From IMG/VR virus record IMGVR_UViG_2740892431_000022: 35,244 bases of DNA; one strand, given 5' to 3'. The stretch is from a virus. Lineage: Duplodnaviria; Heunggongvirae; Uroviricota; Caudoviricetes. Under the pieces are notes generated by a model, which had not been told where the DNA came from, did no database searches, and worked only from the letters and a program-made list of their open reading frames with translations. A program made the translations under genes and the position numbers. Positions 1-35,244 of this stretch are shown piece by piece (within the stretch, counting starts at the first letter, position 1; each line of letters starts with the position of its first letter).

Positions 1-751
1 GTGCAGCACGAGACAAAAATGGAAAACCAGAGCTGGTTGAAAAAACTCGCACGCCGCCTGGGGCCTGGTCATATCGTTAATCTCTGCTTTATCGTGGTAT
101 TGCTTTTTTCCACCTTGCTCACCTGGCGTGAAGTGGTGGTGCTGGAAGATGCCTATATCTCCAGCCAGCGTAATCATCTGGAAAACGTAGCCAACGCGCT
201 CGATAAGCATTTGCAGTATAACGTCGACAAACTGATCTTTTTGCGTAATGGCATGCGCGAAGCTCTCGTGGCGCCACTGGATTTCACCTCTCTGCGTAAT
301 GCCGTAACCGAGTTCGAACAGCATCGCGACGAGCACACCTGGCAAATCGAACTCAACCGACGGCGCACCCTGCCAGTCAATGGCGTATCGGATGCATTAG
401 TCAGCGAGGGGAATCTCCTGTCTCGCGAAAATGAAAGCCTCGACAATGAAATTACCGCTGCACTGGAAGTTGGTTACTTGCTGCGACTGGCGCACAACTC
501 CTCGTCGATGGTTGAACAGGCGGTGTATGTCTCGCGTGCTGGATTTTACGTTTCGACGCTGCCGACCTTGTTTACGCGCAATGTACCAACGCGTTATTAC
601 GGCTATGTCACCCAACCCTGGTTTATCGGCCATTCACAACGAGAAAATCGTCACCGCGCGGTACGCTGGTTCACTTCGCAACCGGAACACGCCAGCAATA
701 CTGAACCGCAGGTTACCGTCAGTGTTCCGGTAGACAGTAATAACTACTGGT
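1..751 (+). pseudogene. dgcQ: 5' fragment of a diguanylate cyclase sensor gene (DgcQ/YedQ-like), interrupted by prophage insertion
   Basis: N-terminal TM helix plus periplasmic domain matching my recollection of E. coli DgcQ up to ...VPVDSNNYW; the frame then runs into 13 unrelated codons ([13 protein letters not shown]) and a stop at 790-792; no second TM or GGDEF domain. Identity is recalled, not searched. Confidence 0.6.
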
Positions 752-800
752 TGATCAGACATGAGATAAATGAAGGGGGATCCGTGAGATAAATAACGAA
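752..800. repeat. Prophage terminal region with two direct copies of TGAGATAAAT (762-771, 785-794); candidate transposase-binding sites
   Basis: Direct 10-bp repeat spaced 23 bp immediately inside the putative end; a looser third copy GATAGATAAG lies at 858-867. Confidence 0.45.
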
Positions 801-874
801 TTGGAGTGGGTTAACATGGGTTCTGGTGAACAGAACTGAAATTCTTTTCCGCTATACGATAGATAAGTCGGGCA

Positions 875-904
875 TTGAAATCATCCTTCCTGGCAACTTA
901 GAAT
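875..904 (+). promoter_or_regulatory. Putative sigma70-type promoter TTGAAA-N18-TAGAAT
   Basis: TTGAAA at 875-880 and TAGAAT at 899-904, about 45 bp upstream of a small ORF that has an AAGGA ribosome-binding site. Confidence 0.3.
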
Positions 905-947
905 CGAGTTTGCTGAAACATGACCCGTAACAAAAAGGATGATTCCA

Positions 948-5710: not shown

Positions 5711-6877
5711 TTAAACCCCTTTGACAACGTCAGCGTTGACCTGTGGAACCCCGATTTCAGCGGCCAGATTCATGGCGGCTATCACCAGGTTACTGACGGC
5801 CAGCGGATACAGCAGGCTGACCATATTTTTACGATGACTTCCCGGATTGCTCAGGCGGGCACGTATGGCATCCACTGCGCTGGCGTCCATAATGTCCGTC
5901 AGTTGTTTACCGGCCCGTTGCAGTTTGAACGTCAGAAATTCTTCAAGGTTATTGTCCAGAGGCAGAAGTTCGACCACCTCACAACGCTGAACGACTTCAC
6001 GGACTTCCATATTGCGTTCAGACAGTTTTGTCGCCAGTTCCGGCTGGCCAATCAGCACGATGGACAGCAGTTTTTTGAAACCGGACTCCAGCTCAAAAAA
6101 GCGTTTGAGGTGTTTCAGTGTCGGAATGGGCAGACTGTGGGCCTCCTCAATCACCAAAACGTGGCTGAACCCCGCCTGGCTGCTGTCTTTCAGGACGCGA
6201 TGCAACTGGCGAAAGCGGGCGTCCTGACTGCGTCTGATGCTTTCCAGTGGTGCGATGGTACTGATAATGGCTTCGGCAATCGCTGCTGCCTTCAGGGTTT
6301 TCCCTTTCACATCGTTGTCTTCCATAGCGATGATGTATGGCTCGATAACAATTACCGGCGCATTCTCGCGGTTGATACGTTCAGTCAGGTCGCGGCGCAG
6401 CGTGGATTTACCCGCACCGGACTCACCGATGACGGCCATAAACCCACCATGACGGGCTGTCTGGTACAACGCCTCACGCACGTAGCGAATGTCCGGGGTG
6501 GTGAACACATCATCAGAACCCTGCATGGCTTCATCGGCGAACGGGTCACGGAAAAGACCAAACGCTTTTTTGGTTGCTGGAAATAACACCTGTTTTTTGA
6601 GTAACATATTCTCTTCCTCACTGAGGCTCGTTTTATCTGTGGTACCCGCTGTACGGGGCGTGGCTGCGCCCTGTACAGCATCAAAACTCTTCGTTGTATC
6701 AATCCCCTGACTTTCCAGCCAGGACGCAAGACGCCGGCGCACTTCTCCGGGGCTGGTGCGGGGCCACGCGTTATGATTCACAATCTGGGCCAGCGTGGCC
6801 TCAGAAACATCGACAGCTCTCGCCACCACCGCCTGTGGGATACGGGCCTCTTTCAGTTGCTGCTTCAGTACCAGCAT
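5711..6877 (-). CDS. Transposition ATPase B (MuB-like AAA+ protein)
   Basis: N-terminal HTH-like segment, Walker A GESGAGKST, Walker B-like VLVIEEAH; start placed at the ATG at 6877 with a strong GAGGAGGAA ribosome-binding site (ORF extends to 6916). Confidence 0.88.
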   Translation of the reverse strand: MLVLKQQLKEARIPQAVVARAVDVSEATLAQIVNHNAWPRTSPGEVRRRLASWLESQGIDTTKSFDAVQGAATPRTAGTTDKTSLSEEENMLLKKQVLFPATKKAFGLFRDPFADEAMQGSDDVFTTPDIRYVREALYQTARHGGFMAVIGESGAGKSTLRRDLTERINRENAPVIVIEPYIIAMEDNDVKGKTLKAAAIAEAIISTIAPLESIRRSQDARFRQLHRVLKDSSQAGFSHVLVIEEAHSLPIPTLKHLKRFFELESGFKKLLSIVLIGQPELATKLSERNMEVREVVQRCEVVELLPLDNNLEEFLTFKLQRAGKQLTDIMDASAVDAIRARLSNPGSHRKNMVSLLYPLAVSNLVIAAMNLAAEIGVPQVNADVVKGV

Positions 6878-6887
6878 GTTTTCCTCC

Positions 6888-8657
6888 TCAGTTGCCGTTA
6901 ACAATGCTGATAACACTGCTGCGTGCCGGCGTGGTCAGCGTGGCCATGACTTCATCCAGTGCAGCTTCCGGTACGCCGTCCGGGTACTGTGCCGTTAACT
7001 GGCGGTAATGTTCCGGCGTCCAGGTAAGGCCGTCGGCGCTGAACTTATCGCGCAGGGCTTTCGCGGCCTCCACATGAGTCATGGGACGTTGTTCAGTGCG
7101 CGGCCCGCGTACGTCAGAGGCCTGACCACGCTTCGGCATATAGGCCGGAAGTGTGGTGTCGTCGATATGTTTATACGGGTCAAGCCGCCCGCCGAACGGC
7201 AGCGCCTTCGCCTTGCGTGCGGCGGCTGCATCTGCGGCGTTGTCTGTACCGGTAACCAGCGCTTCAGTTTCTTTTGCCGCCATCTGTGCCGAGGTTTCCG
7301 GCAGGGCTTTGTAACTTTCGCCAAATACCGCCGCGCCTTCAGCAAAGCCAAACTCGTTCTTTCTGACCTCTTCGACCAGGAAGAACGTCTCGTGGCCGTC
7401 CTCACCGGTCAGAACCACCTGTGCCACATCGCTGCGCCATGGGTTACGGGTAATCATCAGTTTTTCACCAACCAGTACGCCCGGTACCGTTGATACGTCA
7501 AATTCAGTGCCCCGGAACGAGACACGAAGTTTTGGCGTGACTTTGCGGAGTTCTGGTGCCGCCACAGCCAGTTCACGACATACCTCAACGGAAGGCGCTT
7601 TTTTCAGCTGCTCAGCAGTAATCTTCAGCCAGATATCCGTGCGGGTTTTACCGTGGCGGCTGTGAACAGCCGTGGCGTTAAAGTGGCTGCGCCATTTCGC
7701 GGCCAGCGCGTTGAGTTCTTCCAGACTGTGAACCGGCCGGAACTTCAGCCCCGGCTCCAGCTTGCGTTCGATAATGTCACGCGCCTTTTCCACCTGTCCG
7801 GTGGCGCGGGCGTTATGCGGCTTGTGCGCTATCAGGTCGATGCCCAGTGAGCGGCACATGTTTTTCGTCATACCCGCGGTGTTTGCCGAGCCGGGGTCGA
7901 GATAGAGTATTTTCGGCACGCCGTGCAGCACGTCTGCGCCGCCACGCTCCTGCATGGCGTTGATAAGCACAGAACACAGGTTCTCACCTGATTCCGCGCC
8001 CGTCACATACTCAACGTAAATCCAGCCGCTGGCATGGTCGGTAATCTCGTAACTCCACACGCGGTCACTGGCGATACGGGCAAGGTTAGCGGGCTTGTTC
8101 TTGTAGAACTTCGCGCTGTCCATCACCTGCAGCCCTTTATGTCCATTGCTCAGGTAGTAAAGCGTGCAGAGTGAGGCGTCAATCTGCCAGACATGATTGG
8201 GATGCAGACTGGCCACTTCGGTATGTGGTGCAGGGGCATCCAGTTGTTCCGGGTGCAGGCCATAGTTACGCAGAGCACGGCTGATGGCATCTTCAGACAA
8301 CGGGAAAAACTCACTGGTGGTTTCATCTGTTCTGCCTGCGGTGATAAAGCCGTTAGCCCGCAGGGTTTCCACTGCATCTGCGATGGAATAGAGACGCTTA
8401 CCGTTCTTGCGGGTGGCCTCACGCAGTGTGGCAGATATCAGCGCGGCTTCGTCGCGGGTCAGGGCGCTGCGCCCGGCATCGGCGCGTTTTTTGCGTTTAT
8501 CAGTCACAGAGACCTCCTTCAGCCTGCGCAGCAGAGTGGCGCGGGACATGCCAAGTTCAGCACAGGCAGCGTCGTATATTGCACCGCGTTTACCATGCCC
8601 CGCGTCACGTGCCGCGCGGGCGACATAAACCAGTCGTTCAGTCAGGGCAGCATTCAT
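6888..8657 (-). CDS. Mu-type DDE transposase A
   Basis: 589 aa; N-terminal DNA-binding region, central rve-like core (...HVWQIDAS..., ...LYLDPGSANTAG...) and C-terminal region; GGAGG ribosome-binding site; immediately upstream of B. Confidence 0.92.
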   Translation of the reverse strand: MNAALTERLVYVARAARDAGHGKRGAIYDAACAELGMSRATLLRRLKEVSVTDKRKKRADAGRSALTRDEAALISATLREATRKNGKRLYSIADAVETLRANGFITAGRTDETTSEFFPLSEDAISRALRNYGLHPEQLDAPAPHTEVASLHPNHVWQIDASLCTLYYLSNGHKGLQVMDSAKFYKNKPANLARIASDRVWSYEITDHASGWIYVEYVTGAESGENLCSVLINAMQERGGADVLHGVPKILYLDPGSANTAGMTKNMCRSLGIDLIAHKPHNARATGQVEKARDIIERKLEPGLKFRPVHSLEELNALAAKWRSHFNATAVHSRHGKTRTDIWLKITAEQLKKAPSVEVCRELAVAAPELRKVTPKLRVSFRGTEFDVSTVPGVLVGEKLMITRNPWRSDVAQVVLTGEDGHETFFLVEEVRKNEFGFAEGAAVFGESYKALPETSAQMAAKETEALVTGTDNAADAAAARKAKALPFGGRLDPYKHIDDTTLPAYMPKRGQASDVRGPRTEQRPMTHVEAAKALRDKFSADGLTWTPEHYRQLTAQYPDGVPEAALDEVMATLTTPARSSVISIVNGN

Positions 8658-25355: not shown

Positions 25356-25876
25356 TGTCAAAGATTGAGATAAACCGCATCACGAATGCCAACATCTATC
25401 TGGATGGTACTAACCTGCTGGGACGGGCTGAGGAAGTTAAACTCCCCGATGTCTCCATGATTATGCAGGAACACAAGGCGCTGGGGATGGTGGGTAAGGT
25501 GGAACTCCCGGCTGGTTTTGACAAACTGGAAGGCGAAATCAAATGGAACAGCTTTTACCGCGATGCGATGCTGTCTGCCGCGAACCCGTACAGGTCGCTG
25601 GCACTGCAGTGTCGTTCCAGCGTCCAGCGCTACAGCTCGCAGGGGCTGATTGACGAAATCCCGCTGGTCACCTTCCTGACGATTATGTTCAAGAAGAACC
25701 CGCTGGGGACGTTCAAACAGCACGAGAACGCCGAGTTCTCCAGTAGCTTCACCTGCACGTATATCAGACAGGTACTGGATGGTGAAGAGCTGCTGCAACT
25801 GGACTATCTGGCCAACATCTTCCGGGTCGGCGGTGTTGATCAACTGACTGACTACCGTATCAATATCGGGGGCTGA
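25355..25876 (+). CDS. Tail tube protein
   Basis: 173 aa; ATGA-coupled to the sheath gene. Confidence 0.85.
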   Translation: MSKIEINRITNANIYLDGTNLLGRAEEVKLPDVSMIMQEHKALGMVGKVELPAGFDKLEGEIKWNSFYRDAMLSAANPYRSLALQCRSSVQRYSSQGLIDEIPLVTFLTIMFKKNPLGTFKQHENAEFSSSFTCTYIRQVLDGEELLQLDYLANIFRVGGVDQLTDYRINIGG

Positions 25877-26750: not shown

Positions 26751-29700
26751 ATGTCGGGACAGTTTTCAGTCGGCGTTGTTATCGGCGGGATGATTGGCAG
26801 CACATTCCGTTCTGCAATGAGCGGTACCCGCCGTGCGCTTGATTCCCTGAGCGATACCTCACGCCGCCTGCAGGAACGTCAGAACGCTTTAACCCGTGCA
26901 ACAGAACGTTATGGTCAACTGGGTTCTTCCCGGATGCAGCATCTCAACAGCGAGCTGCTGCGGGTAAGCCGCACCATGGAGCAAATTGAGCGCCAGCAGC
27001 GCCGTCTGTCAGCGGCATCCGCTACCAGTGATGCGCTGAAAGCTAACCGCATGGCGCTGTATGGTCAGGGGATTGAAGCGTATGGCATGGCACAGACTGT
27101 TTATCATACGGTTTCCCCTGCCGTTCAGCAGTCCATGTCTTTTCAGGACAAAATGATTGATATGTCGATCACCGCAAAATATGACAATAAAACGCGGGAT
27201 GCACTTGCCGGACAGATAAAAGGCTGGGCGCTTAAATACAATCAGTATCAGGATGAGCTGCAGGAGGCGGTGGGTTCACTCATCAGCGACAATATTGATA
27301 ATGTGTCAGATATCGGTTTTCTGATGCCGGATATTGCCCGCGCGGCAACGGCAACACGCACGTCTGCTCAGGACTGGGCAAAAGTGGCCGCAGTCTGGCA
27401 AAACTCCCTGAAAGGTGCGGCCAGAGATTTTGGTGCCGTTCAGAATATTATGGCTTATGCCGGTGACCAGGGGTCATTTGAAATCCCGGATCAGGTCAAG
27501 TGGATGCAGTCCCTGGCCCCAATGATGGCGGGTATTGCCAGTGGAAAAGAGGCTGTTGCTGAAATCGGGGCCAGTCTCCAGATAGCAAAAATCGGTGCAG
27601 GTTCCACCGACGAAGCAGCTAATAATTTTAAAAACTTTCTTACCAAAATTTTTGCCCGCGATACTCAGAAACAGTTTGCTGATCTGGGTATTGATTTGCA
27701 GGGATCTATTGCGAGTTATAAAGCTGCGGGGATCTCTCCGATTGAAGGGATGTTGAGTGTTATAGAACGTTACCTCAATGCCAAAAGCCCCGAAGCGCTG
27801 GCCGGCTTCAAATCAGCCATGAAAATAAAGAATGATACGGCAAGAGATGAGGCACTTCAGGCTCTGGCGAAAAACTTTGGTCTGGGCGATATGTTCGCGG
27901 ATATGCAGGTCATGGCATTTATCCGCCCGATGCTGGCCAACATGGACAGATATCGAGAGATCCGTGCCGGTGCTCTCAGGGCTGCGGATAACGATTTGCT
28001 TGCCAGTGCTTATGATCAGCGGCTGAAATCTCCCCTTGAAGCCACTAAAACACTTATGGTCAGCAGTCGCGATCTGGCAATTACGCTGGGCGATCAATTA
28101 GCTCCATCTTTTATTTCTTTGACTCAGGAACTGCTTCCACTCATTCAGGGGGCAAAACACTGGGTAGCGACTCACCCGCAATTTGTCAGTGGGGCTTTTA
28201 AGCTCATCAGTGCGCTCCTTGCGATTAAGATAGCGACTGTTGGTCTCAAACTGGGGCTGAATCTCCTTATTTCCCCCTTTGTAAGTGTCTGGAAAAATGC
28301 TGTTTTACTTCGGGCCAACTGGCTTCGTCTGTCGCTCGCACTGGGGCAAGGCGGTAAGCTCCGCTGGCTGGTGACCGGATTTAGCGCCGTCGCCAGAGGA
28401 GCCAGAACACTGAGTGGCGTGCTCTCCGGGGGGCTGGTTCGCGGAATTATGCTCGCCGGACGTGCTGTTCTCTGGATTGGACGTGCGCTGATGATGAATC
28501 CCATCGGTCTCGTTATCACCGCTGTCGCGGCAGCAGCTTACCTTATCTACCGCAACTGGGGGGCAGTCAGTGGCTGGTTTAAACAGCGCTGGGCAGACAT
28601 TCAGGAAGCCTTTAACGGCGGCATTGTGGGAATTGGTAAGTTACTGATTAACTGGTCGCCGGCAGGCCTGCTCTATAAAGCCTTTGCGGCTGCGCTGAAA
28701 TATTTCGGCGTTGCTCTGCCGGCAAAGTTCACCGACTTCGGTGGCCATCTTATCGACGGTCTGATTAACGGTATCAAAAACAAATGGGGGTCGCTCAAAT
28801 CCAGTGTAACCGGAATGGGTGACAGCATCAGTAGCTGGTTTAAACAGTGCTGGGCTGACATTCAGGAAGCCTTTAACGGCGGTATCGCGGGAACTGGTAA
28901 GCTGCTGATTAACTGGTCGCCGGCAGGTCTGCTCTATAAAGCCTTTGCAGCTGCGCTGAAATATCTTGGTGTTGATCTGCCGGCAAAGTTCACCGACTTC
29001 GGTGGCCATCTTGTCGACGGTCTGATTAACGGTATCAAAAACAAATGGGAGTCGCTCAAATCCAGTGTAACCGGAATGGGTGACAGCATCAGTGGCTGGT
29101 TCAGCGAAAAGCTGGGCATTCATTCGCCGAGCCGCGTGTTTATGGGCTTTGGTGACAATATAAGCTGGTTTAAACAGTGCTGGGCTGACATTCAGGAAGC
29201 CTTTAACGGCGGTATCGCGGGAACTGGTAAGCTGCTGATTAACTGGTCGCCGGCAGGTCTGCTCTATAAAGCCTTTGCAGCTGCGCTGAAATATCTTGGT
29301 GTTGATCTGCCGGCAAAGTTCACCGACTTCGGTGGCCATCTTGTCGACGGTCTGATTAACGGTATCAAAAACAAATGGGAGTCGCTCAAATCCAGTGTAA
29401 CCGGAATGGGTGACAGCATCAGTGGCTGGTTCAGCGAAAAGCTGGGCATTCATTCGCCGAGCCGCGTGTTTATGGGCTTTGGTGACAATATCGCGCAGGG
29501 GGCCGCCATTGGCCTGCAGCGGACCACTCCGCTTGCAGCTCTGGCCGGGCAGCGAATGGCCAGTGAACTGCTCCCCAAAATGCCCGTGAGCATTCAGGGG
29601 CCAGAAATACGGGATAACACTTCAGGTGTTCGCTTCAGTATGCCGTTGCCCGATATCAATGGGTTTATGTCGTCTGCTAAAAATGCGATCGGAGCCGTAA

Positions 29701-30032
29701 TCAATAGTTTGTCTTCCATGCCCGCTATCCCGCTCTCCACCCGGGCATCGATTTTACCAGGGCAACGTCTGGCAAATGAGATGACACCGGATGTTCCCCG
29801 TATCCCCTCGCCTGAAATCATGGCTGCCGGATATTCAGGCCGTGGTGCAGCTGCAACCGGCGGTGGAACGTCTGGTGGTATCCAGGTCAGCTTTAATCCT
29901 CAGTTTTTCCTCAATGGCAGGGAAACCACAGCGCCTGCAGGACTGACTGGTGCCCTGAATATGAGTCTGCATGAGCTGGAAAAAATGCTGGAGCGTCTGC
30001 TGGCTCAGAAACAACGTAAGGAGTACCGCTGA
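26751..30032 (+). CDS. Tail tape measure protein
   Basis: 1093 aa, alpha-helical/hydrophobic character, follows the chaperone pair; contains an internal tandem repeat array. Confidence 0.9.
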   Translation: MSGQFSVGVVIGGMIGSTFRSAMSGTRRALDSLSDTSRRLQERQNALTRATERYGQLGSSRMQHLNSELLRVSRTMEQIERQQRRLSAASATSDALKANRMALYGQGIEAYGMAQTVYHTVSPAVQQSMSFQDKMIDMSITAKYDNKTRDALAGQIKGWALKYNQYQDELQEAVGSLISDNIDNVSDIGFLMPDIARAATATRTSAQDWAKVAAVWQNSLKGAARDFGAVQNIMAYAGDQGSFEIPDQVKWMQSLAPMMAGIASGKEAVAEIGASLQIAKIGAGSTDEAANNFKNFLTKIFARDTQKQFADLGIDLQGSIASYKAAGISPIEGMLSVIERYLNAKSPEALAGFKSAMKIKNDTARDEALQALAKNFGLGDMFADMQVMAFIRPMLANMDRYREIRAGALRAADNDLLASAYDQRLKSPLEATKTLMVSSRDLAITLGDQLAPSFISLTQELLPLIQGAKHWVATHPQFVSGAFKLISALLAIKIATVGLKLGLNLLISPFVSVWKNAVLLRANWLRLSLALGQGGKLRWLVTGFSAVARGARTLSGVLSGGLVRGIMLAGRAVLWIGRALMMNPIGLVITAVAAAAYLIYRNWGAVSGWFKQRWADIQEAFNGGIVGIGKLLINWSPAGLLYKAFAAALKYFGVALPAKFTDFGGHLIDGLINGIKNKWGSLKSSVTGMGDSISSWFKQCWADIQEAFNGGIAGTGKLLINWSPAGLLYKAFAAALKYLGVDLPAKFTDFGGHLVDGLINGIKNKWESLKSSVTGMGDSISGWFSEKLGIHSPSRVFMGFGDNISWFKQCWADIQEAFNGGIAGTGKLLINWSPAGLLYKAFAAALKYLGVDLPAKFTDFGGHLVDGLINGIKNKWESLKSSVTGMGDSISGWFSEKLGIHSPSRVFMGFGDNIAQGAAIGLQRTTPLAALAGQRMASELLPKMPVSIQGPEIRDNTSGVRFSMPLPDINGFMSSAKNAIGAVINSLSSMPAIPLSTRASILPGQRLANEMTPDVPRIPSPEIMAAGYSGRGAAATGGGTSGGIQVSFNPQFFLNGRETTAPAGLTGALNMSLHELEKMLERLLAQKQRKEYR
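28572..29492 (+). repeat. In-frame tandem repeat array inside the tape measure gene
   Basis: Two 330-bp units (28833..29162 and 29163..29492) identical except the last base, preceded by a diverged 261-bp copy (28572..28832); each full unit encodes 110 aa. Confidence 0.85.
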
Positions 30033-30916: not shown

Positions 30917-31128
30917 TGTTTCTTGAACATATTACCCGTGACGGAGAGCGCTGGGATTCGCTGGCATGGCAGTACTACGGTGACCCGCTGGGCTATCCCC
31001 GGATTATTGCAGCCAATCCGCACGTGGCCATCACGCCGGTGCTGCCCTCCGGGTTGTTGTTACTGATCCCGGTTATTGAGGCTGAAGATGCCCGTACAGA
31101 AGAGGATATTGCCCCATGGCTGAGATAA
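30916..31128 (+). CDS. Tail protein X-like (LysM-like)
   Basis: About 70 aa; ...ERWDSLAWQYYGDPLGYPRIIAANPHVAITPVLPSGLLLLIP... matches the P2 gpX pattern; GAGGAG ribosome-binding site. Confidence 0.75.
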   Translation: MFLEHITRDGERWDSLAWQYYGDPLGYPRIIAANPHVAITPVLPSGLLLLIPVIEAEDARTEEDIAPWLR

Positions 31129-32270
31129 ACAGTACTGCGCAAGCCACATCAGCGTTAACCGGCGTCAGCGATGTGCTGACGCCGGTATTCACTCTGTGGT
31201 ATCTGCAGAAAAACATCACCTCTGATATCGCGCCTTATGTCACCCGTGTGGTCTGGAGCGATAACATCAAAAATGAGTCCGATACCATTGAGGTGGAGCT
31301 GGACGACACCGATGGCCGCTGGCTGGATAAGTGGTATCCGGGCAAGGGTGACACGCTGACGCTGAAAATGGGTTATCAGGGCGAGAAACTGCTGTCCTGC
31401 GGTACATTCTCAATAGACGAGATCGAAGTGAGTTCGCCCGCGTCCGTTGTCGCTATCCGTGGGGTGGCCACCTCGGTTAACAGTGCTCTGCGGACTAAAT
31501 CCAGCCGTGGTTTTGAGAACACCACGCTGGCAGCTGTTGCGGGGCGGATTGCCAGAAAGCACCGGCTGAAACTGGTGGGCAGCATTGAGTCCATCAGAAT
31601 CGACCGGGTGACCCAGTATGCTGAAACCGACGTGGGTTTTCTGCGCCGGCTGGCCAGCGAGTATGGTTATGCAGTGAAAGTGGTCAGTGACCAGCTGATT
31701 TTTTCTCATCTGGCCACACTGCGCAGTCAGGAGCCGGTCAGGCAGTTAAAACCGCAGGATGTGGCCCGCTTTTCCCTGCGTGACACCATCAACCGGGTCT
31801 ATAAATCTGCAAAGGTAAAACACCAGAAAAGCAGCAGTAAAAAACTGATCGTCTACGAAGCTGATGGTGGTACCCGTGAAAGCGACAAAAAGCTCAAAGG
31901 TGGTAAGGTTACCAGCGCTGACTCACTTAAAGTTAACAGCCGCGTCAGCGACCCGGACAGTGCCCGGATTAAAGCGGATTCAGCACTGGCCAGACATAAC
32001 GAATACCAGCAGAACGGCTCCCTGACGCTGACGGGAACACCTCAACTGACAGCAGGCAACAAAATTGAACTGGTGGGTTTTGGGCAGTTATCCGGGCCAT
32101 GGCTCATAACCACTGCCCGCCATGCGTTTGACCGTAACAGCGGCTACACCACAGAGCTGGAAGTGGCACGGGGGCCAGTCACAAGAGGGAAAAAACAAAA
32201 AACTCAGAAACTCACGGTTTATCACCCGGATGGCAGTACATCGACGGTGATTAAGGAGAAGAAAAAATGA
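31116..32270 (+). CDS. Late control D-like tail/baseplate hub protein (P2 gpD / Mu P-like)
   Basis: 384 aa; conserved position between X and V. Confidence 0.82.
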   Translation: MAEINSTAQATSALTGVSDVLTPVFTLWYLQKNITSDIAPYVTRVVWSDNIKNESDTIEVELDDTDGRWLDKWYPGKGDTLTLKMGYQGEKLLSCGTFSIDEIEVSSPASVVAIRGVATSVNSALRTKSSRGFENTTLAAVAGRIARKHRLKLVGSIESIRIDRVTQYAETDVGFLRRLASEYGYAVKVVSDQLIFSHLATLRSQEPVRQLKPQDVARFSLRDTINRVYKSAKVKHQKSSSKKLIVYEADGGTRESDKKLKGGKVTSADSLKVNSRVSDPDSARIKADSALARHNEYQQNGSLTLTGTPQLTAGNKIELVGFGQLSGPWLITTARHAFDRNSGYTTELEVARGPVTRGKKQKTQKLTVYHPDGSTSTVIKEKKK

Positions 32271-33265: not shown

Positions 33266-34359
33266 CAGAACCCGATTTTATTGAACGCGATGCCGACAAA
33301 ATCACGGCAGAAATGATTGCGAAGTATGAAGCGGATACCGGCAAAACGCTGTACCCGGCACAGGCAGAACGTCTGCTGATTGATCTGTGGGCCTATCGCG
33401 AAATGCTGGTCAGGGTTGCGGTACAGGAGGCAGCAAAGCAGAATCTGGTCGCCTTTGCCCGTGAGCCGATGATTGATTACCTCGGTGAACTGGTTGGTGT
33501 ATACCGTCTTGCCGCGCAGCCTGCCACCACCACGCTCCAGTTCTCCGTAGATGAGGCACTGGCCATTGATGTGCTGATCCCGGCAGGCACCCGCGTCAGC
33601 GCTTCCGACAGCGTTATTTTTGCCACCGATACAGATGTGGTACTGAAGGCCGGATTGCTGCTGGTCAATGTCACGTCCACCTGTACCGAACCCGGTACCG
33701 CTGGTAACGGCTGGCAACCTGCGCAGGTCAGTCAGTTACTCGATGAGATTGATAACGTCGACCTGCTGGTGAGCAATCTGACGGCCAGTTCCGGCGGTTC
33801 AGAACAGGAAGACGATGACAGGCTCCGGGAGCGTATCAGGCTGGCCCCGGAGTCATTCACCAATGCCGGAAGCCGTGGCGCATACCGCTTTCATGCCATG
33901 CAGGCCCATCCCAACATTGTCGATGTTGCTGTGCTTTCCCCGGTTCCCGGGACCGTAGATCTGTATCCGCTGCTCAGTACCGGTCTGCCGGACGGCGGTG
34001 TTCTCACGCTGGTAGAGAGTTTCTGCTCTGATGAGAAAGTCAGGCCACTCACTGATACAGTGCGGGCTAAAACACCAGTGAAGGTGGATTACACCATTGA
34101 AGCCAGGATTACGATCTATCGTGATCAGGATGCCAGGTCTGTAAAAGATGCCGCTAACAGCGCCATACAGAACTGGGTGGCATCACGTGCCGCCACGCTG
34201 GGGCGCGATATTGTCCCCAGCCAGATTATCAGTGCATTGTCCGTTTCCGGGGTGTACCAGGTTGAACTGGTGACACCGGCACTGCGGGTGGTGGCAGAAA
34301 ACGAATGGGCAAACTGTACGGCAATCACTCTTAACATGACTGGAGTGTCTGATGACTGA
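33256..34359 (+). CDS. Baseplate protein J
   Basis: 367 aa; conserved position after W. Confidence 0.85.
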   Translation: MALTEPDFIERDADKITAEMIAKYEADTGKTLYPAQAERLLIDLWAYREMLVRVAVQEAAKQNLVAFAREPMIDYLGELVGVYRLAAQPATTTLQFSVDEALAIDVLIPAGTRVSASDSVIFATDTDVVLKAGLLLVNVTSTCTEPGTAGNGWQPAQVSQLLDEIDNVDLLVSNLTASSGGSEQEDDDRLRERIRLAPESFTNAGSRGAYRFHAMQAHPNIVDVAVLSPVPGTVDLYPLLSTGLPDGGVLTLVESFCSDEKVRPLTDTVRAKTPVKVDYTIEARITIYRDQDARSVKDAANSAIQNWVASRAATLGRDIVPSQIISALSVSGVYQVELVTPALRVVAENEWANCTAITLNMTGVSDD

Positions 34360-34930
34360 GCCATTACAACTCCCGCCACCGCTTGAGGGTGATATCAGTC
34401 TCAGGACGCTGGGAAGACTGGCAGGACGGCTGGATAACATCGACCTGAGCGTACTGATGGTCTTTCTCGTCGATATCGTCGACAGTTCCGCGCTGCCATG
34501 GCTGGGCGAGCAGTTCTCACTGTCTGGCGATGGCTGGGAGCTGGCGGAATCGGACGATGTTCGCCGCATGCTTATAAAAGCAGCCATCGAACTGCACCGG
34601 TATAAAGGGACGCCGTGGTCAATCCGGGAAGTTATCCGCCGTTTTGGCTTTGGTGAAGTGGATCTGATTGAAGGCACAGGTCGTCTCAGTTACGACGGCA
34701 ATCGCAGCTATAACGGACTGTTTGTTCATGGAGATGCAGCCGCCTGGGCAGTTTATCGCGTTATTCTGAAACAGCCCATTACTAACGATCAGGCCGCGAT
34801 GCTGCGTCAGACGCTGGCTGCATTTGCACCGGCCTGCTGCCATCTGGCCAGCCTGGAGTATCAGTCTGTGGCCATTCGCTATAACAATACAGCCATCCAT
34901 GATGGCAGTTATAACCACGGGAGCAGTTGA
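34352..34930 (+). CDS. Tail protein I-like (baseplate)
   Basis: 192 aa between J and the tail-fibre gene. Confidence 0.78.
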   Translation: MTEPLQLPPPLEGDISLRTLGRLAGRLDNIDLSVLMVFLVDIVDSSALPWLGEQFSLSGDGWELAESDDVRRMLIKAAIELHRYKGTPWSIREVIRRFGFGEVDLIEGTGRLSYDGNRSYNGLFVHGDAAAWAVYRVILKQPITNDQAAMLRQTLAAFAPACCHLASLEYQSVAIRYNNTAIHDGSYNHGSS

Positions 34931-34932
34931 TT

Positions 34933-35244
34933 ATGGGAAACCTGAATGAAACAGAAAAGTGGGAAGAAAATATCTATCAACTGGAGACATCAGATCCGGT
35001 TCTGGGTGGTGCAGACGGGATATCAAATCGAGCCCCCCGGCAACTGGCAAACAGGACGAAATGGCTGAAGAAAAAAACGGAGGAAGCCGCACAGTCACTG
35101 GCTGAACACGTACGTTCCCGTAACCACCCGGACGCGACACTGACAGCTAAGGGGTTCACCCAACTGAGCAGTGCCACCAACAGCACCTCTGAAACGCTGG
35201 CCGCCACACCAAAAGCCGTCAAGGCTGCATACGACCTTGCAGCC
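34933..35244 (+). CDS. Tail fibre protein, N-terminal part (continues past the window end)
   Basis: ATG at 34933; open to the window end (104 codons checked by hand); N-terminus MGNLNETEKWEENIYQLETSDPVLGGADGISNRAPRQLANRTKWL typical of conserved tail-fibre N-termini. Confidence 0.8.
   Translation, partial: MGNLNETEKWEENIYQLETSDPVLGGADGISNRAPRQLANRTKWLKKKTEEAAQSLAEHVRSRNHPDATLTAKGFTQLSSATNSTSETLAATPKAVKAAYDLAA

Follow-up and report, generated by a model that had tools for sequence, protein, structure and literature searches.

Tandem 23-bp units, predicted transposase sites, at the left end of a BcepMu/B3-type prophage inserted in Escherichia coli dgcQ

The 5' end of the window (the whole stretch of DNA analyzed, 35,244 nucleotides) is the host gene dgcQ, interrupted by a BcepMu/B3-type transposable prophage whose first base is position 752. 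Just inside this border lies a pair of direct repeats, TGAGATAAAT, which very probably represent the cores of two tandem units, L1 and L2, predicted to be the transposase sites of the left end. Exact termini, 6-bp target duplications, many insertion loci, inverted right-end copies of identical register, and family-wide conservation were all observed. Exact boundaries (first base 752, a 6-bp duplication, and a length of about 37.5 kb) are herewith fixed for a widespread E. coli transposable prophage; automatic annotation had left them unmarked. The end structure as such is already described for BcepMu/B3-type phages, the E. coli prophage is an ordinary new example of it, and the understanding of transposition is unchanged by the result. 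The features discussed below are the following:

1-751, plus strand: 5' part of host dgcQ (diguanylate cyclase), interrupted by the prophage; identified by megablast
746-751, no strand assigned: left copy of the 6-bp target-site duplication, ACTGGT; from comparison of the empty site and the L001 junction
752-774, plus strand: terminal 23-bp unit L1, with TG at 752-753 and core TGAGATAAAT at 762-771; from termini, alignment, and matrix
775-797, plus strand: second 23-bp unit L2, with core TGAGATAAAT at 785-794; from matrix and spacing in relatives
797-829, plus strand: four GGGA-like boxes with a period of 10-11 bp, weak here (CGAA, GGGT, GGGT, GGTGA); from the consensus of 24 left ends
837-851, plus strand: palindrome-like TGAAATTCTTTTCCG; the family consensus is TGCAA-N5-TTGCA, and its distance from either end is fixed
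858-867, plus strand: ATAGATAAGT, the proposed degenerate third copy, which lacks support as a site; from matrix and alignment
5711-6877, minus strand: AAA+ ATPase (ExeA/GspA-like, AAA_22 type), predicted target-delivery partner; Pfam AAA_22, E = 3.6e-20
6888-8657, minus strand: DDE (rve) transposase TnpA, predicted binder of the repeats; from Pfam and tblastn

The junction was mapped by comparing the empty site of E. coli ATCC 25922 (L002), which carries an intact dgcQ and reads ...AACTACTGGTATGGCG, with the left junction in the window and the right junction in strain SCU-172 (L001). When positions 1-1300 were searched by megablast against 5,426 complete E. coli genomes, the homology to dgcQ ended at 751. 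Positions 1-751 alone were matched in 5,364 of these genomes, where they are annotated as dgcQ, and the full 1,300 bases in five only. SCU-172 has the same insertion in dgcQ, with a near-identical prophage and ACTGGT at both flanks. The junction thus defined is 751|752, base 752 being the T of the terminal TG, and the repeats do lie just inside the prophage end, as had been proposed. The window stops at 35,244, within the tail genes, and the right end of the prophage lies beyond it; the right end was taken from the near-identical prophage of SCU-172, which spans 37,491 bp from TGATCAG... (window 752) to ...GCGCATCA. The termini 5'-TGATCAG...GCGCATCA-3' were identical in five independent insertions, in dgcQ, gudD, kefF, irp1, and the rhaS region. 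All five were flanked by a 6-bp target duplication, and the duplicated sequences were different and unrelated: beside ACTGGT in dgcQ, they were ACATGG (gudD), TCCTGT (kefF), GCAAGT (irp1), and GATATT (near rhaS). Nearly full-length matches to the left-end 359 bp came from 118 E. coli genomes and lay in a wide variety of genes. With its varied loci and short target duplications, the prophage behaves as a transposable element with almost random insertion.

The host genes inactivated by the prophage include dgcQ, gudD, kefF, irp1, and a flagellin gene. The copy in the rhaS region (L006) is a defective prophage: through an internal deletion (33314-35086), a 5'-truncated transposase has become fused to a late gene. 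Both ends and the 6-bp duplication are retained in this copy, the inner right site of which reads GAGATAAAT instead of GCGATAAAT.

The left end, TGATCAGACATGAGATAAATGAAGGGGGATCCGTGAGATAAATAAC, carries TGAGATAAAT as exact copies at 762-771 and 785-794 on the plus strand, 23 bp apart from start to start, exactly as originally described; counted from 752, they occupy element positions 11-20 and 34-43. The right end of the SCU-172 prophage, read from the outside inward, is TGATGCGCCGCGCGATAAATGCACTCTATCTTGTGCGATAAATGG. It bears two inverted copies of the motif, with the core GCGATAAAT present twice and as far from the terminus as the left-end cores, so that the search for inverted copies at the opposite end, the check put forward with the original prediction, came out in its favor. 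Counted from either terminus, the core G[A/C]GATAAAT spans positions 12-20 and 35-43. That prediction had also taken the arrangement to be the one expected of transposase end-binding sites. The inverted right-end copies and the mapped junction support this, and from the anatomy of the ends and from homology we infer that the transposase is the protein that binds them.

The same layout was recovered in related elements. BcepMu, B3, PM105, and phiSHP3 all begin with TG and have a first core at positions 12-20 and a second one 22-23 bp further inward, at both ends; comparison with the ends of related prophages, likewise suggested at the outset, yielded a common two-site layout. Throughout the E. 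coli element and these four phages, the outermost left site was always of the GAGA type and the outermost right site always of the GCGA type, implying a conserved left/right asymmetry. When 24 non-redundant left ends were aligned with MAFFT, the core fell at positions 11-20. Further relatives were sampled with a transposase alignment, by which one genome of each species was scanned; this yielded 80 loci with a homologous transposase. A strict two-site pattern matched 37 of the 80 loci, in every case past the transposase, on the side and strand expected, and only a single match occurred elsewhere in 3.15 Mb. With a matrix built from the five reference elements only, site pairs were found in 50 of the 80 loci; these are predicted left ends from about 50 other bacterial species. 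TG was present at the predicted terminus of 46 of the 50 pairs, and the spacing was 23 bp in 44. At the thresholds used, the remaining 30 loci, mostly more distant relatives or short contigs, did not yield a site pair. The motif pair is conserved across elements of Enterobacterales, Burkholderia, Pseudomonas, and Stenotrophomonas, and the two-site, 23-bp end architecture is thus common to Burkholderia/Pseudomonas phages and enterobacterial ones. The resulting compact 46-bp definition of an end can be used for finding such prophages or for building mini-elements.

In Oceanospirillum beijerinckii (L080, 3969-4013), a TG-terminated two-site end, TGTAGGGCCGCGAGATATTTCAG...GCGAGATAATT, faces the transposase from about 6 kb upstream, a position that suggests a different element arrangement in that lineage. 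A solo left-end remnant of about 145 bp (window 761-905) was found adjoining a LysR-family gene (6001-6144 in both L010 and L011). It is 88-90% identical, with both TGAGATAAAT cores intact and the first few terminal bases different (TGCATCA...). Left-end matches of 80-90% identity occurred in 196 records. Of all places matched by the left end, 109 were on plasmids; the sampled remnant-bearing records comprised many 190-230-kb plasmids of poultry isolates and also chromosomes.

For a quantitative evaluation, a family weight matrix was trained on 54 sites, from which the E. coli element had been excluded, and applied to 76,600 positions of L001. L2, R2, R1, and L1 ranked 1st, 2nd, 3rd, and 5th, respectively. 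L1 scored 14.3 and L2 18.0, the real sites covering the range of 14.3-18.0, with a 99.9th percentile of 5.0. Two internal matches, TGAGATAAAC, had scores comparable with that of L1, namely 14.4 at 25364-25378 and 13.4 at 31119-31133 (L001 30789-30803), showing that the core alone is not unique to the ends. Both of these are situated at tail-gene junctions. Their high scores are probably due to chance.

Chance also had to be considered for the repeats themselves, as a direct repeat without function could arise in A+T-rich non-coding DNA. Among 200 Markov-1 random windows of the same size, 62% held an exact 10-mer pair within 40 bp (mean 1.39 pairs), and TGAGATAAAT with up to one mismatch was not enriched within the window (4 found versus 1.17 expected). 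The pair alone is thus within chance and was judged by its context; its significance derives from where it lies, from the inverted right-end copies, and from conservation across relatives. A coincidence would not account for a register that is constant relative to a precisely mapped terminus, for inverted copies on the right, or for conservation in four bacterial groups, and we regard it as effectively refuted by the comparative data and scarcely credible. A different matter is the suggested degenerate third copy at 858-867, which, as a spaced third site (L3) for the transposase, would make the layout Mu-like. The ends of Mu carry three transposase sites each, and ATAGATAAGT has 7 of 10 bases in common with the motif. 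However, its best matrix score was 2.6, which is below the 99.9th percentile and at background level. In the alignment of the 24 left ends, the relatives have tGaAA and not a GATAA core in the corresponding column, the right end is without a counterpart, and the non-coding sequence of the B3 left end fits in 123 bp without such a site. Weight matrix and left-end alignment together led us to reject this part of the original prediction, and a third site at this place appears very improbable.

Alternatively, the repeats might be bound by another end-specific protein, such as the small terminase (at a pac site) or a small helix-turn-helix regulator of the early operon, and the transposase would then recognize something else near the tip. 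Several small DNA-binding proteins are indeed encoded by the phage. A pac site, however, is expected at one end only, whereas in five lineages the sites are present at both ends, inverted and in exact register with the cleaved TG/CA terminus; the left-only GGGA array is a better pac candidate. Moreover, each end of Tn552, reportedly the distant relative of this transposase family (PMC2628397), likewise carries two terminal units of 23 bp. Binding by such a protein is therefore considered unlikely, and the repeats are best read as the cores of L1 and L2, the predicted transposase sites.

Apart from the two units, the ends share other conserved elements. The GGGA array follows L2 in the alignment consensus of the 24 non-redundant left ends; it was absent from the six right ends examined. 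TGCAA-N5-TTGCA was found at position 86-87 in five of five left ends and at position 68-69 in six of six right ends, and it is common to the E. coli element, BcepMu, B3, PM105, and phiSHP3; the right copy lies at 38160-38174 of L001. With at most two mismatches, this element occurs only six times in the whole 37.5-kb prophage, and the window's own copy has three mismatches. Tentatively, and with considerable doubt, the GGGA array could be a pac site for the small terminase and the palindrome a site for a dimeric accessory protein in transpososome assembly. By analogy, the role imagined for the palindrome could be likened to that of HU/IHF or of the third site in Mu. A search for IHF sites was negative, as the consensus WATCAANNNNTTR with up to one mismatch did not occur within 200 bp of any of 11 ends, and IHF sites near the ends were rejected. 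A description of the GGGA array or the TGCAA-N5-TTGCA element was not found in the literature covered on BcepMu/B3-type ends.

GATC (Dam) sites are present at 753-756, in the tip (TGATCA), and at 779-782, between the L1 and L2 cores (GGATCC); the first 46 bp of the right end are free of GATC. A DNA adenine methylase is encoded by some sister prophages (L003 and L004) and is absent from the prophage in the window. The terminal GATC is not kept in all relatives, TGATTAG being common.

The predicted binding protein, the 589-residue TnpA, matched only rve in Pfam and none of the MuA domains. In tblastn comparisons, it was 68% identical to the TnpA of BcepMu over 98% of its length and 56% identical to that of B3 (ORF12); it is 99% identical to the transposase of Escherichia phage PhiKM, a Bcepmuvirus. 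The AlphaFold model was poor overall (mean pLDDT 59), with the N-terminal ~135 residues modeled confidently as a three-helix bundle plus a winged helix. The best fold matches of the model in Foldseek were IstA and TnsB (E about 3e-7), and with TM-scores below 0.2, they lend weak support for the general class only. A PDB sequence search with TnpA returned weak matches to retroviral-integrase cores and none to MuA. The best NCBIfam match was IS481, below the family cut-off, and tblastn of TnpA against plasmids gave IS481-family transposases of about 25% identity; Staphylococcus was absent among the matches listed in that search. The AAA+ ATPase gene adjoins the transposase gene and occupies the position of BcepMu gp08 and B3 ORF11; the homologous gene is annotated as "DNA transposition protein" in BcepMu and B3. 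According to the RefSeq annotation of a near-identical prophage, the gene order is that of BcepMu/B3: the early operon runs leftward, Mor adjoins the left end, and the late genes run rightward. The late region combines Mu-like head genes with a P2-like tail.

By analogy with known systems, a mechanism can be proposed. One TnpA protomer would bind each 23-bp unit via its N-terminal helix-turn-helix and winged-helix domains, and four bound protomers, a stoichiometry that we infer from this analogy, would pair the two prophage ends. On each 3' strand, TnpA would introduce a nick behind the terminal CA, and the 3'-OH ends would be joined to target DNA at positions 6 bp apart, giving rise to the 6-bp duplication. 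The adjacent AAA+ ATPase may present the target DNA.

Further observations concern the rest of the prophage. An inward sigma-70-like promoter match at 875-904 (TTGAAA-18-TAGAAT, 10/12) is directed toward a 53-codon open reading frame at 948-1109 (WP_001571575.1). On the opposite strand to this reading frame, 1113-1745 encodes a 210-residue protein without a family match. The tape-measure gene, at 26751-30032 in the window (1,093 residues), is 330 bp longer than that of SCU-172 (L001 26751-29702, 983 residues) and is polymorphic in length, with 3,213 bp in L003, 2,952 bp in L004, and 2,478 bp in L006. Past the end of the window, L001 36394-38164 encodes a Gin/Cin-type serine recombinase and oppositely oriented tail-fiber/assembly genes. 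This right-end segment is of the invertible host-range kind known from Mu and P1, and its orientation in L001 differs from that in L003 and L004.

Among known systems, the closest are the Burkholderia phages BcepMu and phiE255. Imperfect direct repeats of 23 bp at both ends of these phages have been presumed to be transposase sites (Ronning et al. 2010, PMC2920897), and the terminal repeats of BcepMu are credited, as cited elsewhere, to Summer et al. (2004, J Mol Biol 340:49). For BcepMu-type elements, the transposases of which are related to that of Tn552, TnpA sites and termini of the TG...CA form are on record (PMC2628397). The prophage in the window has in common with BcepMu and phiE255 the TG...CA termini and two units per end at a 23-bp phase, with a core G[A/C]GATA at 12-17 and 35-40; with BcepMu, it shares the homologous transposase and the gene order. 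It differs in its host, E. coli, and in its core, which is mostly GATATTT in BcepMu and GATAAAT here, all four cores of the E. coli element being near-perfect copies. At the right end, it has the Gin-type invertase and the invertible tail-fiber segment, where BcepMu has an acyltransferase instead. Members of Beetrevirus (B3, PM105, JBD25, and others) resemble it in the transposase (50-57% identical), the AAA+ partner, the TG termini, and the two-site ends, as well as in the GGGA array of the left end and in TGCAA-N5-TTGCA. B3-type phages are distinguished by a siphovirus-type tail, by more degenerate cores (GAGAAATAC, GCGAAATTT), and by an R1-R2 spacing of 22 bp. Five features by which BcepMu/B3-type elements are recognized, namely rve transposase, AAA+ ATPase, operon layout, TG...CA termini with a target duplication at many unrelated sites, and inverted 23-bp repeats, were all found in the E. 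coli prophage.

Tn552 is not a phage but a 6.5-kb beta-lactamase transposon of Staphylococcus aureus. It was read in plasmid pMW2, the terminus being taken as the break in homology across 1,274 plasmids and the other end as the inverted copy. It too has TG termini and two tandem 23-bp units per end, and its core, ATAWAT at 15-20 and 38-43, is in the same register as in the phage ends. It generates a 7-bp target duplication and carries a transposase and AAA ATPase gene pair. In 1995, Rowland and co-workers reportedly found that purified Tn552 transposase footprints both 23-bp units. The phage-family matrix gave scores of 2.3-2.5 for the terminal units of Tn552 (rank 72-79 of 41,280) and values below zero for the inner units. 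As the units did not attain a significant score, homology of the ends at the sequence level is doubtful. The similarity of TnpA to the Tn552 transposase was marginal, with E = 7e-4 across 46 catalytic-core residues, and the pMW2 copy is frameshifted. Register and unit length thus indicate a shared architecture, with weak similarity at the level of sequence.

With Mu, the prophage shares the life of a transposable phage, TG...CA termini, multiple sites in inverted orientation, an AAA+ target-delivery partner, and near-random insertion, as well as Mor, GemA, Gam, and homologues of head genes. In contrast to that of Mu, its transposase lacks MuA-type domains (Mu DNA-binding, Mu-transposase C-terminal). 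There are two supported sites per end instead of three and a duplication of 6 bp (five of five insertions) instead of 5 bp, and the early operon is inverted relative to that of Mu. The original prediction had noted that the motif differs from the left-end sites of Mu, and this was correct: the highest family-matrix score in the left end of Mu was 6.4, that end resembles the E. coli end in the terminal TG only, and the transposase is of the BcepMu/B3-type rve class. The element works like Mu, yet it stands outside the Mu family.
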